The position numbers were made by a program, and so were the translations under genes. A model generated the notes under the pieces. The model was not told where the DNA came from and ran no database searches. It saw only the letters and a program-made list of their open reading frames with translations. From NCBI GenBank assembly GCA_009694045.1, contig SHVY01000002.1, positions 39,491 to 103,490 of the forward strand: 64,000 nucleotides of DNA. Reading direction: 5' to 3'. Source of the stretch: Alphaproteobacteria bacterium (GTDB lineage Bacteria > Pseudomonadota > Alphaproteobacteria > SP197). This document shows positions 55,973 through 64,000 of this stretch, piece by piece (the first letter of the stretch is position 1; every line of letters starts with the position of its first letter).

Positions 55973-56138
55973 CTCATCGTCCGCTGCATCAAGGGCCTCA
56001 AGCTCGTGAACCGCGGCGAACCCGTCCCCAACCCGACGACCTGGCTGTTCTGAGACGCACATATGCGTTTCCCCCGTTGTCGGAGGGAACGTTTTTGTTT
56101 CTCCCCCGCTCCTCGTGGCAGGGGGGAGGGGGAGGGGG

Positions 56139-59100
56139 ATGCGCGCCACCGCGTCACGCCAGGAAATCGAGGTCTCCGCCTGGCTCAATGACCTCGCGCT
56201 TGACCAGTACGCCACCGCGTTCGCCGCGAACGACATCGACCGCGCGACGCTGGCGACCCTGACCGACGCCGACCTCAAGGAGCTTGGCGTCGCCTCCCTG
56301 GGCCATCGCAAGAAGCTGCTCCAGGCGATCGCGTTGCTCGGGCCGCACCCCTCGCCGTCCGCCGCCAGCTATACGCCCCGCCATCTGGCCGAGCGCATCC
56401 TGGCCGCCCGCGACACCCTCGTGGGCGAACGCAAGGAAGTGACGGTCCTGTTCGCCGACGTGCAGGGCTCCCTTTCCCTCATCGAGGGCCTGGACCCGGA
56501 GCAGTCGGCCGCGCGTCTCGCCCCGGTGATCGAGGCGATGATGGCGGCCGTCCACCGCTTCGAGGGCACCGTCAACAAGGTTCAGGGCGATGGGATCATG
56601 GCGCTGTTCGGCGCCCCCGTGGCCCACGAGGACCACGCGATTCGCGCCGGCTATGCCGCCCTCGCCATGCGCGACGCGATCGCCGCCCAGGCGGAGCGAA
56701 CCCGGCGCGAGCACGGCTACGAGGTGCGCGCCCGTGTCGGCCTGCACTCGGGCGAGGTGGTCGTGCGCGGCATCGGCACCGACCTGAGCGTGGATTACGA
56801 CGCCATCGGCCCGACCGTGCATTTGGCGAACCGCCTGGAACAGCTCGCCCTACCCGGCACCATCCGGATCAGCGCCGCGACCCAGCGCCTGGCCGCCGGG
56901 TTTCTCGCCGTGGCACCCCTGGGGCCGGTCCCGGTCAAGGGCCTGAGCGAGCCCATCGAGATCTTCGATCTCCAGGGCGCCACCGGTGCCCGCAACCGGC
57001 TCCAGGCCCTGGGCGAACGCGGGCTCTCTCCCTTCGTCGGTCGCGCGGGCGAGGTCGCGATGCTCGAACACGCCCTCGACCGCGCCAAGGGGGGCGAAGG
57101 CCGGGTCGTGGGCCTGGTCGGCGAGCCCGGGGTCGGCAAGTCGCGCCTGGCTTTCGAGTTCGCGCGCTCGCCGGGCACCGCCGGCTGCCTTGTTCTCGCC
57201 GGGAGCTCGGTGTCCTACGGTCGGGCAACGTCCTGGCTGCCCGTGATCGACCTGCTGCGCGCATACTTCCGGATCGACGCCGGCGACGACGACGACGAGC
57301 GCGCGGTCCGCGAGAAGGTGATGGGCAAGGTCCTGGCCATCGATCAGTCGCTCGCGCGGGCCGCGCGCATCGTGCTCAGGTTGCTGAAGGTCACGGCGGA
57401 CTTCCCCGAGTGGGACGCGCTGGAGCCGCCGCAGCGCCGCCGTATGACCTTGGATGCGATCCGCGCCCTGCTGCTCGCCGCAGCCGCGATCCAACCGCTC
57501 GTCCTGATCTTCGAGGATCTGCATTGGGCCGACGGCGAGACGTTGGCGCTGCTCGACGGCCTGATCGGGGGCATCGCCACCCATCGGGTGATGCTGTTGG
57601 CGACGCTCCGACCGGAATTCGCCCATGACTGGGGCGGACGCAGCACCTATGCACAGGCCGGCTCGACCCGCTGCCGCCCCTCGGCATCGCGGACTTGCTG
57701 ACCGCGCTCCTGGGCAATGACGCGAGCCTCGGCTCACTCAAGGCCCGGCTCGCCGCCATGGCCGGCGGCAACCCGCTCCACGTCGAGGAAGGCGTGCGCG
57801 CGTTGATCGAACAGGGTTCACTCGTGGGCACGCCTGCCGCCTACCGGTTCATCGGCGACATCGCGAACCTCGCGATGCCGGATGGCGTGCGCGCCATCAT
57901 CGCCGCGCGCATCGATCGCCTGACGCCGGAGCGGAAGCAGCTCCTTCAGGCCGCCTCGGTCGTCGGCAGCGACGTGCCAGTCGATCAACTCGCAGCCATC
58001 GCCGACCTCGATCCGGACACCCTGAAAACGGCGCTCGCGGCGTTGCAGGCGGCTGAGTTCCTCTACGAGACGCGACTGTTCCCAGATCGCCACTTCGCCT
58101 TCAAGCACGCCTTCACCCACGACGTCGCCTACGGCGGCCTTCTCCGAGCACGCCGCCGCGATCTTCACGCCCGGCTCGGCGCCGCGATCGAGGAGTCCCA
58201 AGGTGCCGGTGCCGAGGTTGAGGCCCTCGCCGGCCATTTCGAGCGCGGCGAAGTCTGGGACAAGGCCGCCCGCTACTGGCTCGCGGCAGCCGATCAGGCG
58301 AGGGGACGCTATGCGTATGCGCGCGCACTCGACGTCGGCAAGAAAGCCCTCGCCTGTGCGCAACACCCCACAAGCGACCCCGGTATCAAGCAGTCGATTC
58401 TAACGACCCTAGGCGATTTGGCGGGGTTGTATGGCGACTTCAATGACGCCAATGCTTGGTACGAGCAGGCTCTTCGCGTGCCCTGCTCGGAGGACGCTCG
58501 TCGGTCGATCGACAATCGGGTCCATCGACCATACTTCGCCGGGCCTGACGATGCGCGCGTCGCGTACCACACGCACGGATCGGGAGACGAGTGGGTGATC
58601 GTCTTCTGCCCAAGCCTCTATGAAGTTCGTATTTCCCAGCCGCTGCTCGAGTTGATGTGTCAAACGGTACAGGGTTGTCACGGTTCACCCGCGTGGCGAC
58701 GGACCCTCCGATCCGGCACCGGAGCCTTACACGTTGGCCGAGCAGGCCGCTGACTTCCGGCGGGTAATCGAGAAACTGGGATCTGGTTCCAAGACCGCGA
58801 TCGGGATCTCGCGCGGCGGCACTTTGGCTCTCATCTTGGCTCGAGATCATCCGGGCCTTCTGGATCGAATCGCGCTGGTCGGGACTCCCGTGGACGACTT
58901 GGTGAGCCCAGGATGCCTCTACCCGCGCCCCGACGCGCTATCCGAGAAAACCCTTCAAGCCGTCGAGGACGGAGATTTTCAAACCGCCGCGTCGATTGCC
59001 TCGCACAGTGTTTTCTCGGAGGACGGCTATTTCGATTTCGCCGAGAACTCCATTCGCATATGGCTGGCGCACGGGGAAGCCACGGCTCGCCGTTTGTTGA

Positions 59101-59369
59101 TAGGCTTCCATGGTCCGAACCCGGAATTGGACATCAAGCCATGGTTGGGAACGGTGCGAATACCCACGCTCGTGACACACGGCGTCAATGACCGGCGCGC
59201 CCCGTACGCGGTGTCGAAATACATAGCCAACCAGATTCCTGGGGCGTTGCACTTTGGCTTTCCCGGGCGCGGACACGAGCCGCTCTTCACGGCGCCGGCT
59301 GAATTCCTCGCCGTCCTTGACCAATTCATCAAGACCGGCACCGTGCCGTCCCCTACCCGATCAGGATGA
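56139..59369 (+). pseudogene. Large multi-domain signalling gene (SAM, class III adenylate/guanylate cyclase, AAA/STAND ATPase, TPR), running on without a stop into an alpha/beta-hydrolase domain; disrupted by two +1 frameshifts
   Basis: SAM region WLNDLALDQYATAFAANDID..LKELGVASLGHRKKL; cyclase region KEVTVLFADVQGS..FEGTVNKVQGDGIMALFGAP; AAA region GLVGEPGVGKSRL. Shift 1 at ~57651-57665: ..GGRSTYAQ / RLDPLPPLGIADLLTALLGNDASL..GGNPLHVEE. Shift 2 at ~58653-58661: ..SQPLLELM / KRYRVVTVHPRGDG...GISRGG nucleophile elbow. The ATG at 56139 follows a G-rich RBS. Confidence 0.55.
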
Positions 59370-60690
59370 ACACCCGGGTGTTGCCGCGGACCACGCTGAG
59401 GCTCATGCGGCTGGAGTTCTGGCGGGCAATGTCGAGCAGGGCTTCCGGCGTCGCCACCGGCTCGCGGTTGACGGCGACGATCACGTCGCCCGGCCGCAGG
59501 CCCGCCCGCGCCGCCGGGCTGCCCGGCACCACGTCGGACACCAGCACGCCGCCCTCGCCGTCCTCGTCCGGGGGCAGGGCCTGGAAGCTCGCGCCGGCCA
59601 GGAGCGGCACGGTCGCCGCCGTCGTGGCCGCGGACGCCGGCGCCGCCGCTTCGTGCTCGATCGTCGCCATCACCGTGCGCGGCACGCCGTCGCGCACCAC
59701 GTCGAGCGCCATGGAATCGCCCACCCGCAGCAGCCCGACCTTGTTCCGGAGGTCGAAGCTGCCGTCCACGGCCCGGCCGTTGGCGCCGATCACCAGATCG
59801 CCCGGCTGCAAACCCGCCTGGTCCGCCGGCGACCCCGGCTTGACCGCCACCACCAGGGCGCCCGCGGTCGAGGCGAGGCCCAACCCTTGCGCCAGGTCCG
59901 GCGTCAGATCCTGGGTGCGCACCCCAAGCTGGCCGCGATCGATCGAGCCGTGCAGGGCGATCTGTTCGGCGATCCCGCGCACCATGGTGACGGGGATGGC
60001 GAAGCCGATGCCGATCGAGCCGCCGCGGCCGAGGATCGCCGTGTTGATGCCGACCAGCTCGCCCGCCATGTTCACCAGCGCTCCGCCCGAGTTGCCGGGG
60101 TTGATCGAGGCGTCGGTCTGGATGAAGTCCTCGTAAACCTCGAGCCCGAGGCCCCGCCCCAGCGCGCTGACGATCCCGAGCGTCACGGTCTGGCCGATGC
60201 CGAACGGATTGCCGATCGCCAGCACGAAGTCGCCGACCTCCAGCGCGTCCGAATCGCCGATCGGAATCGCCGTCAAACCCTCGGCCGGGATGCGCAGGAC
60301 GGCGATGTCGGTTTCCGGATCGGTTCCGACCAGCTCGGCGGCGAAGCTGCGCTGGTCGCGGAGCGTGATACGGATCACGTCGGCGCCGTTGATGACGTGA
60401 TGGTTGGTGACGATCAGCCCTTGGTCCGCGTCGATGATGACGCCGGAGCCGGCGCTCGTCACCTCGCGGCTGCCGCCGTCGTCGGGCAGGCCGAAGAAGT
60501 TGCGGAAGAACGGGTCGGCGAACAGGGGATTGGCTGGATCGGCGATCGTCGCCTTGACCGCGACGTTGACCACGGCGGGGGTCACCTGCTTGATCATCGG
60601 CGCAAGGCTGGGCAGCGGCGCGGTCGCGGCCCCCGCCACGCCCGCCCATCCGACCACCGCCACCACGAGCCAAGCGCCCATTCGCCGCAT
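59353..60690 (-). CDS. degP: Periplasmic serine endoprotease DegP/HtrA (trypsin domain plus two PDZ domains)
   Basis: HHVINGAD..D..GNSGGAL catalytic triad context; two PDZ domains. Signal peptide from the ATG at 60690; alternatives at 60681 and 60705. Confidence 0.9.
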   Translation of the reverse strand: MRRMGAWLVVAVVGWAGVAGAATAPLPSLAPMIKQVTPAVVNVAVKATIADPANPLFADPFFRNFFGLPDDGGSREVTSAGSGVIIDADQGLIVTNHHVINGADVIRITLRDQRSFAAELVGTDPETDIAVLRIPAEGLTAIPIGDSDALEVGDFVLAIGNPFGIGQTVTLGIVSALGRGLGLEVYEDFIQTDASINPGNSGGALVNMAGELVGINTAILGRGGSIGIGFAIPVTMVRGIAEQIALHGSIDRGQLGVRTQDLTPDLAQGLGLASTAGALVVAVKPGSPADQAGLQPGDLVIGANGRAVDGSFDLRNKVGLLRVGDSMALDVVRDGVPRTVMATIEHEAAAPASAATTAATVPLLAGASFQALPPDEDGEGGVLVSDVVPGSPAARAGLRPGDVIVAVNREPVATPEALLDIARQNSSRMSLSVVRGNTRVFILIG

Positions 60691-60728
60691 CGCTTCGTCC
60701 TCCATCGCGGCCACTATATAGTGCGCCC

Positions 60729-62132
60729 GTGACGGTCGCGAACCCCCCCCTTCGCTCCGGCTGGCGCCGGTGGCTCGCCGCCTCCGCCGTGTACCGCGAG
60801 CGCGCCGTCCTCGTCGTCCTCGCCCTCGGGTTCGCGAGCGGCCTGCCGCTGGCCCTCAGCGGCGCAACCCTCGCCATCCGCCTGCGCGAGGCCGGGCTCG
60901 AGCTCGGCTCCATCGGCCTGTTCGCGGCCGTCGGCGCGCCCTACACCCTCAAGGTCCTGTGGGCACCGCTGGTCGATCACCTGCCGATCCCCGTGCTCAC
61001 GCGGGTCCTCGGGCGCCGGCGCGGCTGGTTGTTGGCAAGCCAGGTCGCCGTCGTGGGCGCGATCCTCGCCCTCGGCGGGGTCGATCCCGAAGGCGCGATC
61101 GGCCTGGTCGCGCTCCTCGCCTTCATCCTCGCCGCCCTGTCCGCGACCCAGGACATCGTGATCGACGCCTACCGGGTAGAAAGCCTGGAGGATCGCCAGC
61201 AAGGCGCCGGAGCCGCCATGGCGGTGTTCGGCTACCGGGTCGGCATGTTGGCCTCGGGTGCGCTCGCCCTGATCCTCGCCGAGCGTCTGCCCTGGGTGGC
61301 GGTCTACCTCGCGATGGCGGCCTTGATGGCGGTGGGCGTGTTCGCGACCCTCCTCGCGCGCGAGCCGGCCGGCGCCGCCGCCCGCGCAGCCGGCGTCCGA
61401 GATCGCGCCGAGGCCGCTCGCCTCGCCGGCCGCCTGGGACTCGCGAACGCCAGGGCGGCGGCGGCCTGGGCCTGGCTCTACCGCGCCGCGGTCCGCCCGT
61501 TCCTCGACTTCATGACCCGGTCGCGATGGCTCTGGGTCCTGCTGTTCGTGGTGCTGTACAAGTTCGGAGACGCTCTGGCCGGCTCCCTCGCCAGCGTGTT
61601 CTACCTCGATATCGGCTTCGCCAAGGACGAGATCGGCGCCGTCGCCAAGGTCTTTGGCTTCGGCGCGACCTTGGTTGGGCTGGCGCTCGGCGGTTGGCTG
61701 CTCAACGCCGTCGGTGCCGTCCGCGCGCTGCTGATCGCCGGCATCCTGCAGCTCCTCTCCAACCTGACCTTCGCCGTCCAGGCCGTGGCGGGCCCGGACC
61801 TGGGGTTCCTCGCCTTCACCATCGCGGCCGAGAACCTGGCCGGCGGGATGGGGACCGCGGCCTTCGTCGCCTACTTGAGCGGCCTGTGCAACGTCGCCTA
61901 CACCGCCACCCAGTACGCCCTGCTGTCGTCCCTCGCCGCGTTCGCGCGCACTCTTCTGGTCACCCCGGCGGGGTTCCTGGTTGAGCGCCTGGACTGGACC
62001 GGCGCGGCCGCCGCCGTTGGCCTAGGAGCCCTGCCCAATCTGCCCTGGATTGGCTTCTTCCTGCTCACCACCCTCGCCGCGGTCCCCGGGCTTCTGCTTC
62101 TCCTGGTCGTCGCGCGGCCGCGACGTGATTAG
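60729..62132 (+). CDS. ampG: Muropeptide permease AmpG (MFS)
   Basis: LGFASGLPLAL...GAPYTLKVLWAPLVD AmpG signature; ~14 TM. GTG start at 60729; TAG stop. Confidence 0.85.
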   Translation: MTVANPPLRSGWRRWLAASAVYRERAVLVVLALGFASGLPLALSGATLAIRLREAGLELGSIGLFAAVGAPYTLKVLWAPLVDHLPIPVLTRVLGRRRGWLLASQVAVVGAILALGGVDPEGAIGLVALLAFILAALSATQDIVIDAYRVESLEDRQQGAGAAMAVFGYRVGMLASGALALILAERLPWVAVYLAMAALMAVGVFATLLAREPAGAAARAAGVRDRAEAARLAGRLGLANARAAAAWAWLYRAAVRPFLDFMTRSRWLWVLLFVVLYKFGDALAGSLASVFYLDIGFAKDEIGAVAKVFGFGATLVGLALGGWLLNAVGAVRALLIAGILQLLSNLTFAVQAVAGPDLGFLAFTIAAENLAGGMGTAAFVAYLSGLCNVAYTATQYALLSSLAAFARTLLVTPAGFLVERLDWTGAAAAVGLGALPNLPWIGFFLLTTLAAVPGLLLLLVVARPRRD

Positions 62133-62204
62133 GTTCGCCCGGTTGGAAATCGGCGCAAGCGGTATCATGTTGACGGAGACGCCGCTTCCCGACGAAGGGG
62201 TTAC

Positions 62205-62598
62205 CTGACCGACCAACCATCGATCCCGGACGAGCCCCGCGCCGAGCGCAAGCTCGCGGCGATCCTGGCGGCCGACGTCGCCGGCTACAGCCGGTTGATG
62301 GGCCAGGACGAGGAAGGGACGCTGCACCGGCTCAACGCGCATCTCGAGGCGCTGGTCGAACCGCGCATCACCGAGCATCGGGGACGCATCGTCAAACGCA
62401 CCGGCGACGGCCTGCTGGTGGACTTCGCCAGCGCGGTCGAGGCGGTCCGCTGCGCCATCGCGGTCCAGGCGGGCATGGCGGCCCGCAATCGCGCGACCCC
62501 TTCGGAACAGCGCATCGAGTTCCGCATCGGCATCAACCTCGGCGATGTCATCATCGTCGGCGACGACATCCATGGCGACGGCGTCAACATCGCGGCCC
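62205..62598 (+). pseudogene. Class III adenylate/guanylate cyclase remnant: no in-frame start codon upstream of the first motif, and the catalytic domain is truncated after GDGVNIAA
   Basis: ERKLAAILAADVAGYSRLMGQDEE..RIVKRTGDGLLVDF..RIGINLGDVIIVGDDIHGDGVNIAA, followed by sequence that is antisense to the MBL gene. An upstream ATG at 62168 lies in a different frame (MLTETPLPDEGVT*). Confidence 0.5.
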
Positions 62599-62714
62599 CG
62601 CACCAGCCAGATGTTGCAGCGGTAGAACGGCTTGACGTGGGGCTCCCAGATCGCCGTGACGCCATTGGTCAGCGTCCGCCACTCGAACCAGTGTCCCGCG
62701 ATCGCAAGGCTCAC
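62589..62714 (-). pseudogene. MBL-fold metallo-hydrolase N-terminal remnant (~42 codons), its GTG start overlapping the pxpA stop (GTGA)
   Basis: SLAIAGHWFEWRTLTNGVTAIWEPHVKPFYRCNIWLVRGRD, followed by sequence antisense to the cyclase remnant. Confidence 0.4.
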
Positions 62715-63499
62715 CGCGCAAGCTCAGCCAATTCCAGCTCGGGCAAGGGCGCCACACGCCAGCCGCCGCCTTCCAGGGCCGTGCGCACCGCACCCGCCAC
62801 CGCGACCGCCGTCGGCTCGTCGCCGTGGACGCAGAACGAGTCGATCCGTGCCGGTATCCGCTTGCCGCCGACCGAGAACAACGCGCCCTCCCCCGCCATG
62901 CGCAAGACGTGGTCCACGGCCTTGGCGGGATCGCGGATCAGGGCGTAGTCCAGCTTGCGCGAGGTCAGGTTGCCATCCTCGTCGTAGGTGCGGTCGGCGA
63001 AGGCTTCTTCCGCCACCGCGAGACCCGCCGCGCGGCCCGCCTTCGCCATGGCCGAGCCCGCGACCGCGAGGAAGATCAGGCCGCGGTCCACGCCCCGGAT
63101 TCCTCGCGCGATGGCCGCCGCCAGGTCGTCCTCGACCGCGGCCAGGTTGGAGAGCGCCCCGTGCGGCTTCACATGGCTTACCCGCCCGCCAGCGAGCGCC
63201 GCCACCCCCATCAGCGCGCCGATCTGGTAGGCGACCATGGCCTCGACCTCGGCCCCGCTCATGCGCATGGGTCGCCGCCCGAAGCCCTGCAGGTCGGGGA
63301 ACGACGGATGGGCGCCCAGGCTCACGCCCGCGGCCACGGCACCCTTCACCGTCGCCGCCATCACGCTGGGATCGCCGGCGTGGAAGCCGCAGGCGACGTT
63401 GGCCGACGCGACGATGCGAAACAGCTCGACATCCGCGCCCATCCGCCAGGCGCCGAAACTCTCGCCCATGTCGGCGTTCAGGTTGATCGACCTCGCCAT
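62711..63499 (-). CDS. pxpA: 5-oxoprolinase subunit A (LamB/YcsF family)
   Basis: MARSINLNADMGESFG start and LamB_YcsF fold sequence. No pxpB/pxpC neighbours in the window. Confidence 0.85.
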   Translation of the reverse strand: MARSINLNADMGESFGAWRMGADVELFRIVASANVACGFHAGDPSVMAATVKGAVAAGVSLGAHPSFPDLQGFGRRPMRMSGAEVEAMVAYQIGALMGVAALAGGRVSHVKPHGALSNLAAVEDDLAAAIARGIRGVDRGLIFLAVAGSAMAKAGRAAGLAVAEEAFADRTYDEDGNLTSRKLDYALIRDPAKAVDHVLRMAGEGALFSVGGKRIPARIDSFCVHGDEPTAVAVAGAVRTALEGGGWRVAPLPELELAELAR

Positions 63500-63582
63500 T
63501 TCACCTCCGCGCGCGTAAGCACCCTGCTCTCAAAACACTAACACAAGCGCGGTCGTGTCGGACCGGAGCCAAATGTCGTCGC

Positions 63583-63879
63583 TCAGTGCGGCGCCGACGA
63601 CTGCCGGGTGAATGTCACGAGTGGCTCGCAGGATCCTTTGGCCAAGTTGCGCCGCACGACATCCGCGAAGGATTTTGTGTCCTTGATCTGTTGCAGTCCC
63701 AAGGGTGTGAAGGTCTCCGGACCAAAGGCGTTGGCGGCAAGCAGGGGGTTCGTCAGGGCTTGGGAGAAAGCGCCGGATCCGACCATCTGCCCCATGAGTG
63801 GCGGGATGACGGAGGTCTTGCCACGGCCCTCGGCAATGAGCCAGCTCGACCCGATCGACCCCCTTGACGCCACCAACAT
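63583..63879 (-). CDS. Hypothetical ORF or fragment in a lower-GC segment at the window end (weak VirD4/TraG-like GK..VIPxL resemblance)
   Basis: MLVASRGSIGSSWLIAEGRGKTSVIPPLMGQMVGSG... Four codons upstream of the ATG there is an in-frame TAG, and the frame stays open above it. Confidence 0.25.
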   Translation of the reverse strand: MLVASRGSIGSSWLIAEGRGKTSVIPPLMGQMVGSGAFSQALTNPLLAANAFGPETFTPLGLQQIKDTKSFADVVRRNLAKGSCEPLVTFTRQSSAPH

Positions 63880-64000
63880 CCGGGTCGACGACTATCCCGA
63901 TCTATTCACCGGACGAAGCGTGATACGTGCGGCGGGATCACGGGTGGCGTTTTGGACGCGGGGATGTGTGGCGTCTGATTGGCGTGGTTTGGTGTCGAAG

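Follow-up and report, generated by a model that had tools for sequence, protein, structure and literature searches.

The question raised by this locus is what became of the DNA between ampG and pxpA. Near the end of the window (the whole stretch of 64,000 nucleotides that was analysed), these two intact genes are separated by about 580 bp, in which an earlier note, made from the letters alone, had recognized the beginnings of an adenylate cyclase gene and an MBL-fold hydrolase gene, tail to tail and with 9 bp in common. Alignments with homologues (A1 and A2) and a tblastn search bore out this description of two 3'-truncated remnants. The chromosomal junction between them probably arose from illegitimate recombination between short stretches of common sequence (ATCGCGGCC, 9-10 bp). 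The locus is an ordinary pseudogene scar and an example of a known process, with no new mechanism or system.

Organization of the ampG-pxpA interval

The features of the interval are listed in Table 1; ampG and pxpA exceeded the cut-offs of their families by a wide margin. AmpG (MSP81542.1 at NCBI) was the last gene found to be syntenic with its closest relative, contig L087; DNA similarity between the window and this contig stopped at 62117, and only 9 bp separate AmpG from the next gene in L087. Across the region, no Rfam family, tRNA or promoter-like site was detected, and none of the three terminator-like sites was located at the junction. The TAG codon of ampG (62130-62132) is in frame with the cyclase remnant, with no stop in between, and read-through of this codon would add the remnant to the C-terminus of AmpG; the shared frame is probably a coincidence.

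Table 1. Position and identification of the features between ampG and pxpA (window coordinates).
Feature	Coordinates	Strand	Identification or remarks
ampG, AmpG muropeptide transporter, intact	60729..62132	+	NCBIfam TIGR00901, 480 bits, full length
230-aa ORF, best treated as spurious	62022..62714	-	42 MBL codons + 188 codons running antisense through the cyclase remnant and the final 111 nt of ampG
Non-coding stretch from the AmpG stop to the cyclase remnant	62133..62222	+	Frame open, start codon absent, no codon-phase GC signal
Class III adenylate/guanylate cyclase, 5' remnant, ~125 codons	62223..62597	+	PF00211, alignment A1, tblastn
Junction microhomology ATCGCGGCC	62589..62597		Ile-Ala-Ala of the cyclase on the plus strand; Gly-Arg-Asp of the MBL on the minus strand
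MBL-fold hydrolase, 5' remnant, 42 codons	62589..62714	-	phmmer, PF00753, alignments A2 and A5
pxpA, 5-oxoprolinase subunit A (LamB/YcsF family), intact	62711..63499	-	PF03746, 311 bits; NCBIfam NF003814

PxpA (MSP81543.1) was assigned to NF003814 with 338 bits (cut-off 226) over residues 3-253. Neither pxpB nor pxpC was found throughout the 64 kb window, in which pxpA is an orphan; at pxpA loci elsewhere, they were present in the flank in 62 cases out of 81. The lack of these two partners bears on metabolic inference. Upstream of pxpA (63500-64000), GC content was lower (0.61-0.63), with no clear codon-phase signal and no match to Pfam, NCBIfam or plasmids. None of the assemblies of this population extends more than 0.4-0.5 kb upstream of pxpA; just beyond the end of the window, there may be a repeat or a strain-variable boundary.

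A cyclase remnant downstream of ampG

The plus frame reads DEPRAERKLAAILAADVAGYSRLM...TGDGLLVDF...IHGDGVNIAA, followed by PHQPDVAAVERL, and contains the cyclase motifs ERKLAAILAADVAGYSRLM, TGDGLLV, and GDGVNIAA. Over 125 residues, the remnant was 80-84% identical to PF00211 proteins (E ~1e-57 to 3e-57). The match to the Pfam Guanylate_cyc profile (PF00211) covered positions 9-134 of 183 and scored 18.9 bits, below the cut-off of 21.9, a shortfall due to the truncation of the domain. In alignment A1, the window tracked the family up to GVNIAA and then read PHQPDV, where all homologues have RLE(A/G)LAEPGGI.VSR.VRD.VRDKL; with homologue P0009 as the query, tblastn matched 62229-62597. In the closest solved structure (3mr7), the domain takes up positions 7-174 of the homologue, of which the window reaches only 125; the catalytic fold is thus incomplete, with residues 126-174 gone.

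Both metal-binding Asp residues, the Lys, and the Asn of GVNIAA are retained; the catalytic Arg, the final third of the fold, the TPR region, and a start codon are missing. In class III cyclases, the Asn of GVNIAA and an Arg four residues further on stabilize the transition state. The break falls between these two residues, and a Pro stands in the position of the Arg. The remnant shares motifs and a high level of identity with the PF00211 cyclases that carry a TolB-like/TPR region (alphaproteobacterial type), but differs from them in ending at profile position 134 out of 183, without the Arg, the C-terminal strands, or the TPR. In-frame homologues read LPDKPSIAVLPF, with a TolB-like/TPR part of ~395 residues; judging from these, the ancestral gene probably had ~600 codons, of which ~125 are left.

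At the 5' end, it had been claimed that no in-frame start precedes the first cyclase motif, and indeed the cyclase frame contains no ATG, GTG, or TTG from the AmpG stop to 62295, leaving no start before the first metal-binding Asp. The 5' frameshift proposed in the same context was not supported: the ORF that begins with the ATG at 62168, in another frame, has only 13 codons and is unlike the homologues. These start 5-7 codons before ERKL (MENQRTERKL, MDEQQRTERRL), and the position of their ATG is occupied by ATC/CCG in the window (about 62223-62228); loss of the start codon by substitution would be a simpler reading than a frameshift. The 125 codons of the stub are free of internal stops and frameshifts, which points either to a recent event or to some residual constraint. 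As the start codon, the transition-state Arg, and the C-terminal third are missing, the stub is dead: it is a pseudogene fragment and not a functional member of the family.

Cyclase homologues of ~200 aa were considered as a natural short family, which was rejected because their C-termini (PCRTSRRSPCCRSPT) are LPDKPSIAVLPF, and hence the downstream TolB-like/TPR part, read out of frame. In L090 (6001-7760, equivalent to 1373-3084 of L091) and L083 (10001-11751), a cyclase ORF (~204 aa) and a TolB-like/TPR ORF (~396 aa) lie in different frames (-1) and overlap by ~45 nt, the second one beginning with GTG/TTG-PDKPSIAVLPF. This arrangement was reproduced in an NCBI MAG and an independent Logan assembly; in P0005, P0011, and P0055, the two parts are fused in frame. 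The split homologues could reflect the division of one gene into two, a pseudogene with a frameshift, or a site of recoding, and a slippery heptamer was not obvious in them. Part of the remaining ~200-aa matches came from error-prone long-read assemblies. The homologue loci L082, L083, L090, and L092 exhibited no synteny with the window.

An MBL-fold hydrolase remnant downstream of pxpA

The minus-strand ORF reads MSLAIAGHWFEWRTLTNGVTAIWEPHVKPFYRCNIWLVRGRD, followed by VDAVAMDVVADDDD (VDAVAMD...). Its GTG start (62714-62712) overlaps the TGA of pxpA (62713-62711) as GTGA, in agreement with the coupling of the GTG at 62714 to the pxpA stop that had been noted from the sequence. A word-indexed homology search with the 42 MBL residues gave no match. 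With phmmer, the same residues matched 258 proteins at E<=1e-3 among 1.84 billion representatives, and the full-length matches that were scanned proved to be Lactamase_B (PF00753) proteins of 253-306 aa, which establishes the family similarity. The remnant was 55-71% identical to the N-termini of MBL proteins of 240-269 aa.

In alignment A2, the window matched through RCNIW.VRGRD, of which G40, R41, and D42 are invariant in the MBL alignment, and then departed from the homologues, which continue as RDLLIDTG...ATHxHxDH. As had been stated for both genes, homology is thus lost at the junction, with the expected RLE continuation missing on one side and LIDTG on the other. Among 63 complete metagenomic relatives, the median length was 255 aa and HxHxDH was present in 61; on this basis, about 215 codons (~84% of the gene) have been lost, together with HxHxDH and every downstream metal ligand. 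The solved MBL structures (closest 2xf4; glyoxalase II/YcbL-like) align only from residue 45. The remnant thus resembles MBL-fold hydrolases (PF00753) in its 42 N-terminal residues, including the invariant RCNIW.VRGRD, but ends before HxHxDH, and the stub is dead because no metal-binding motif is reached. No pxpA was found upstream of the closest MBL matches, P0122 and P0128.

Bases shared at the junction

Cyclase homology stops at 62597 and MBL homology at 62589; the coordinates proposed earlier, 62590-62598, were one base too high. The C at 62598 also fits both parents, as the first base of CGN (Arg) in the cyclase and as part of CCG, the antisense of MBL Arg-39. When 3 million random junctions were simulated within the window, at least 9 shared bases were obtained with P=1.7e-4 and at least 10 with P=6e-5, which puts the overlap of 9-10 bp beyond chance, as expected for a microhomology scar. 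Synonymous codons differ in the homologues (GCC GCC in the cyclase; GGG CGG GAC in the MBL gene of L099). We infer that both parents matched at all 9 bases, protein conservation fixing only some bases in each of them.

In the 64 kb window, the sequence of which is 70% GC, ATCGCGGCC occurs six times on the plus strand and five times on the minus strand, so substrates for such events are plentiful. To the left of the junction, codon-phase GC in the plus frame was 0.74/0.45/0.91, the same as in ampG, and to the right, GC3 in the minus frame was 0.90. This supports a switch of the coding strand at the junction.

Reproducibility of the join

Since the sequence derives from a metagenome-assembled genome, with a contig end 1.4 kb from the junction, we considered whether unrelated contigs had been merged via the common 9 bp. 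Logan contig L081 (SRR8561390) was 100% identical to the window over 61521-63918, and Logan contig L089 (SRR8561391) had a single mismatch, at 62051, over 60412-63406. Moreover, pxpA, the 230-aa ORF, and ampG were carried by two contigs in ENA, 22 kb and 54 kb in length, that belong to sample ERZ1305449 and were compared by gene products. The same join is therefore present in four other contigs, two runs, and two haplotypes, which makes a mis-join very unlikely. An overlap of 9-10 bases is also far below the k-mer size of assemblers and should not be able to create a false join in them, and GC is uniform across the join. A chimeric assembly, the exclusion of which had been suggested in the earlier note, is thus extremely improbable.

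Position 62051, a third codon position of ampG, is a C/T polymorphism that distinguishes two co-occurring haplotypes. The 230-aa products of the two ENA contigs, which belong to different haplotypes, are one residue apart (N221D), a difference that probably corresponds to this polymorphism. The haplotypes also differ by a frameshift in an 871-aa signalling gene, and by the length of a small ORF upstream of pxpA (98 aa versus 70 aa). The junction is older than the split of at least two haplotypes.

The locus in related genomes

In two JGI metagenome contigs, L097 and L099, which share 99.98% identity, pxpA is 74% identical to the gene in the window and leads into an MBL gene through the same GTGA overlap. 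The MBL gene of L099 reads VSLRLADRWFAWRTIDDGIVAIDEPHIKPF*RCNIWLVRGRDRDALIDSGLG...ATHTHFDHIGAHHEF and continues as ...GRDRDALIDSG...THTHFDH. The minus strand of the window aligned with L099 across the 3' end of pxpA and MBL codons 1-42, and parted from it right after GGCCGCGAT. This alignment demonstrates an ancestral pxpA-MBL operon and reveals what the window has lost. The MBL gene of L099 is itself a pseudogene, with a TAA at codon 31 (TAC in the window) and homology that stops at about residue 145 of 255. In a further relative, L007 (pxpA 74% identical), MBL is absent, and the pxpA stop overlaps the end of the same gene that converges on MBL in L099; this gene encodes 150 aa and is unrelated to cyclases.

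Taken together, the states of L099, the window, and L007 indicate that MBL was eroded independently in at least three lineages. The gene was probably already dispensable in the clade, its relatives having either lost it or kept a pseudogene. The erosion of dispensable genes is a textbook feature of bacterial genome evolution, and Mira, Ochman and Moran reportedly described in 2001 how deletional bias erodes genes in bacterial genomes. The likeness here is that MBL is found after pxpA at three stages of loss: L099 retains 145 codons, with a stop among them, the window 42, and L007 none.

A second tail-to-tail scar was observed in L099 (4001-4737, the same in L097), where the MBL pseudogene meets the 3' end of the convergent 150-aa gene. 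The stop codon of the latter has been lost, and about 56 extra codons run antisense into the MBL remnant.

On the ampG side, the closest AmpG relative (L087/L088, 77% identical) has DjlA, EF-G, a MamF-like gene, DegP, and AmpG in common with the window. In these contigs, an ACT-domain gene and then a two-component system follow AmpG, and the cyclase, MBL, and pxpA are all absent. Moreover, a pxpA search of GTDB representative genomes gave 80 loci, none of which had an MBL N-terminus or a cyclase downstream. The comparison of syntenic regions thus provided the continuation of MBL, in L099, but no relative that pairs a cyclase with MBL, or that associates this block with AmpG.

Origin of the junction

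Recombination would have connected the initial ~125 codons of a cyclase gene, situated downstream of ampG, with codons 1-42 of MBL, the second gene of the pxpA-MBL operon. As both parents have the shared 9-mer in direct orientation, the simplest event would be a deletion in which a single copy of the repeat remained and all the DNA between the two copies was lost. Such a deletion would have removed 50 or more codons of the catalytic domain of the cyclase, about 215 MBL codons, and further intervening DNA; on the cyclase side, the loss probably takes in the TolB-like/TPR tail of roughly 400 codons. The mechanism itself (slippage or end joining at the microhomology), as well as the type and size of the event, is inferred. 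No undeleted parental allele was found in GTDB representatives or JGI metagenomes, L099 showing the MBL side only.

Spontaneous deletions verified in Salmonella Typhimurium have direct repeats of at least 8 bp at their end points (Sun et al. 2012, PMC3411829). The window resembles them in that a short direct repeat remains as a single copy, its length of 9-10 bp falls in the verified range, and genes are truncated; it differs in that the event is deduced from a single derived allele, and in that the parents may not have adjoined. As for the loss of the 3' parts of two convergent genes through microhomology, as originally proposed, the truncations and the 9-10 bp overlap stood; that the two genes were convergent neighbours is less certain, the pxpA relatives L099 and L007 having no cyclase opposite MBL or pxpA. 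As neither the AmpG relatives nor the pxpA relatives bring these genes together, the event may have been a deletion of large size, or the junction may mark where some other rearrangement ended, rather than a small local deletion between neighbours.

According to the second of these possibilities, the junction would be where an inversion, translocation, or insertion ended at the same microhomology, and the 3' halves would still exist at other sites in the genome. Synteny with the AmpG relative does not extend past the AmpG stop codon, the gene that converges on MBL in the relatives of pxpA is not a cyclase, pxpA is without its usual pxpB and pxpC neighbours, every assembly breaks shortly upstream of it, and other broken genes are located nearby (56115-59369); together, these observations suggest a rearrangement hot spot. 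However, the missing 3' parts of the cyclase and MBL were found nowhere else in the 64 kb window, the 9-mer is direct, which fits a deletion, whereas an inversion requires inverted repeats, and MBL has also been lost by erosion in related lineages. We therefore consider such an end point unlikely, and a deletion between direct copies of ATCGCGGCC the simplest account. The locus provides a clean, small case of gene erosion, whose break point can be placed to the base, at a microhomology of 9-10 bp.

The 230-aa ORF spanning the junction

The join also creates an ORF of 230 codons on the minus strand. This ORF is called in the ENA and Logan assemblies (Prodigal-type callers) but not by NCBI, whose AmpG and PxpA accessions are consecutive, indicating that its pipeline calls no protein between them. 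Searches of Pfam and NCBIfam gave no family for the ORF, its cluster consists of two sequences from this population, and no relative was found beyond the population among 1.84 billion representatives. Past codon 42, GC was 0.74 at third positions and 0.84 at first positions. Neither the conservation nor the codon composition of a functional gene was thus observed.

It is conceivable that the ORF is a real chimeric or newborn gene, whose translation is coupled to that of pxpA and whose transcript runs antisense into ampG. The GTGA overlap with pxpA is intact and ancestral, Prodigal-type callers report the ORF, and there is no terminator-like site from the junction to the overlap with the 3' end of ampG, the sole one on the same strand being located upstream of pxpA. 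Against this, the codon-phase GC is wrong after codon 42, and the ORF is without a family, matches only itself among the 1.84 billion representatives, and is left uncalled by NCBI; moreover, at 70% GC, long antisense ORFs are expected. We thus find a genuine gene very improbable. The same low credence applies to the corresponding scenario, in which the deletion would have made a chimeric ORF (42 MBL and 188 antisense residues) that is still translated via the GTGA, with pxpA transcription continuing antisense into ampG because no terminator is left between the convergent units. If true, antisense transcription from pxpA could modulate muropeptide transport, and gene birth and antisense rewiring by deletion would have been caught in the act.

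The ORF is best treated as spurious, although some translation via the coupling to pxpA is possible. For annotation, the locus should be described as two pseudogene fragments, and the 230-aa 'hypothetical protein' as an artefact of gene callers.

A broken signalling gene upstream of ampG

Another disrupted gene was observed at 56115-59369. It is a large signalling gene that combines SAM, class III cyclase, AAA_16/TPR, and, at the C-terminus, an alpha/beta-hydrolase. A break at 57695-57701 divides it into ORFs of 528 aa and 352 aa; in another contig of the same sample, it forms a single ORF of 871 aa. The hydrolase domain is split again: its N-terminus (ARVAYHTHGSGDEWVIVF) closes the 352-aa ORF, and the remainder (Pfam profile position 53 onward, with GISRGG) is present in another frame at 58734-59369. 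In L087, the slot of this gene is occupied by a MazE-PIN pair.
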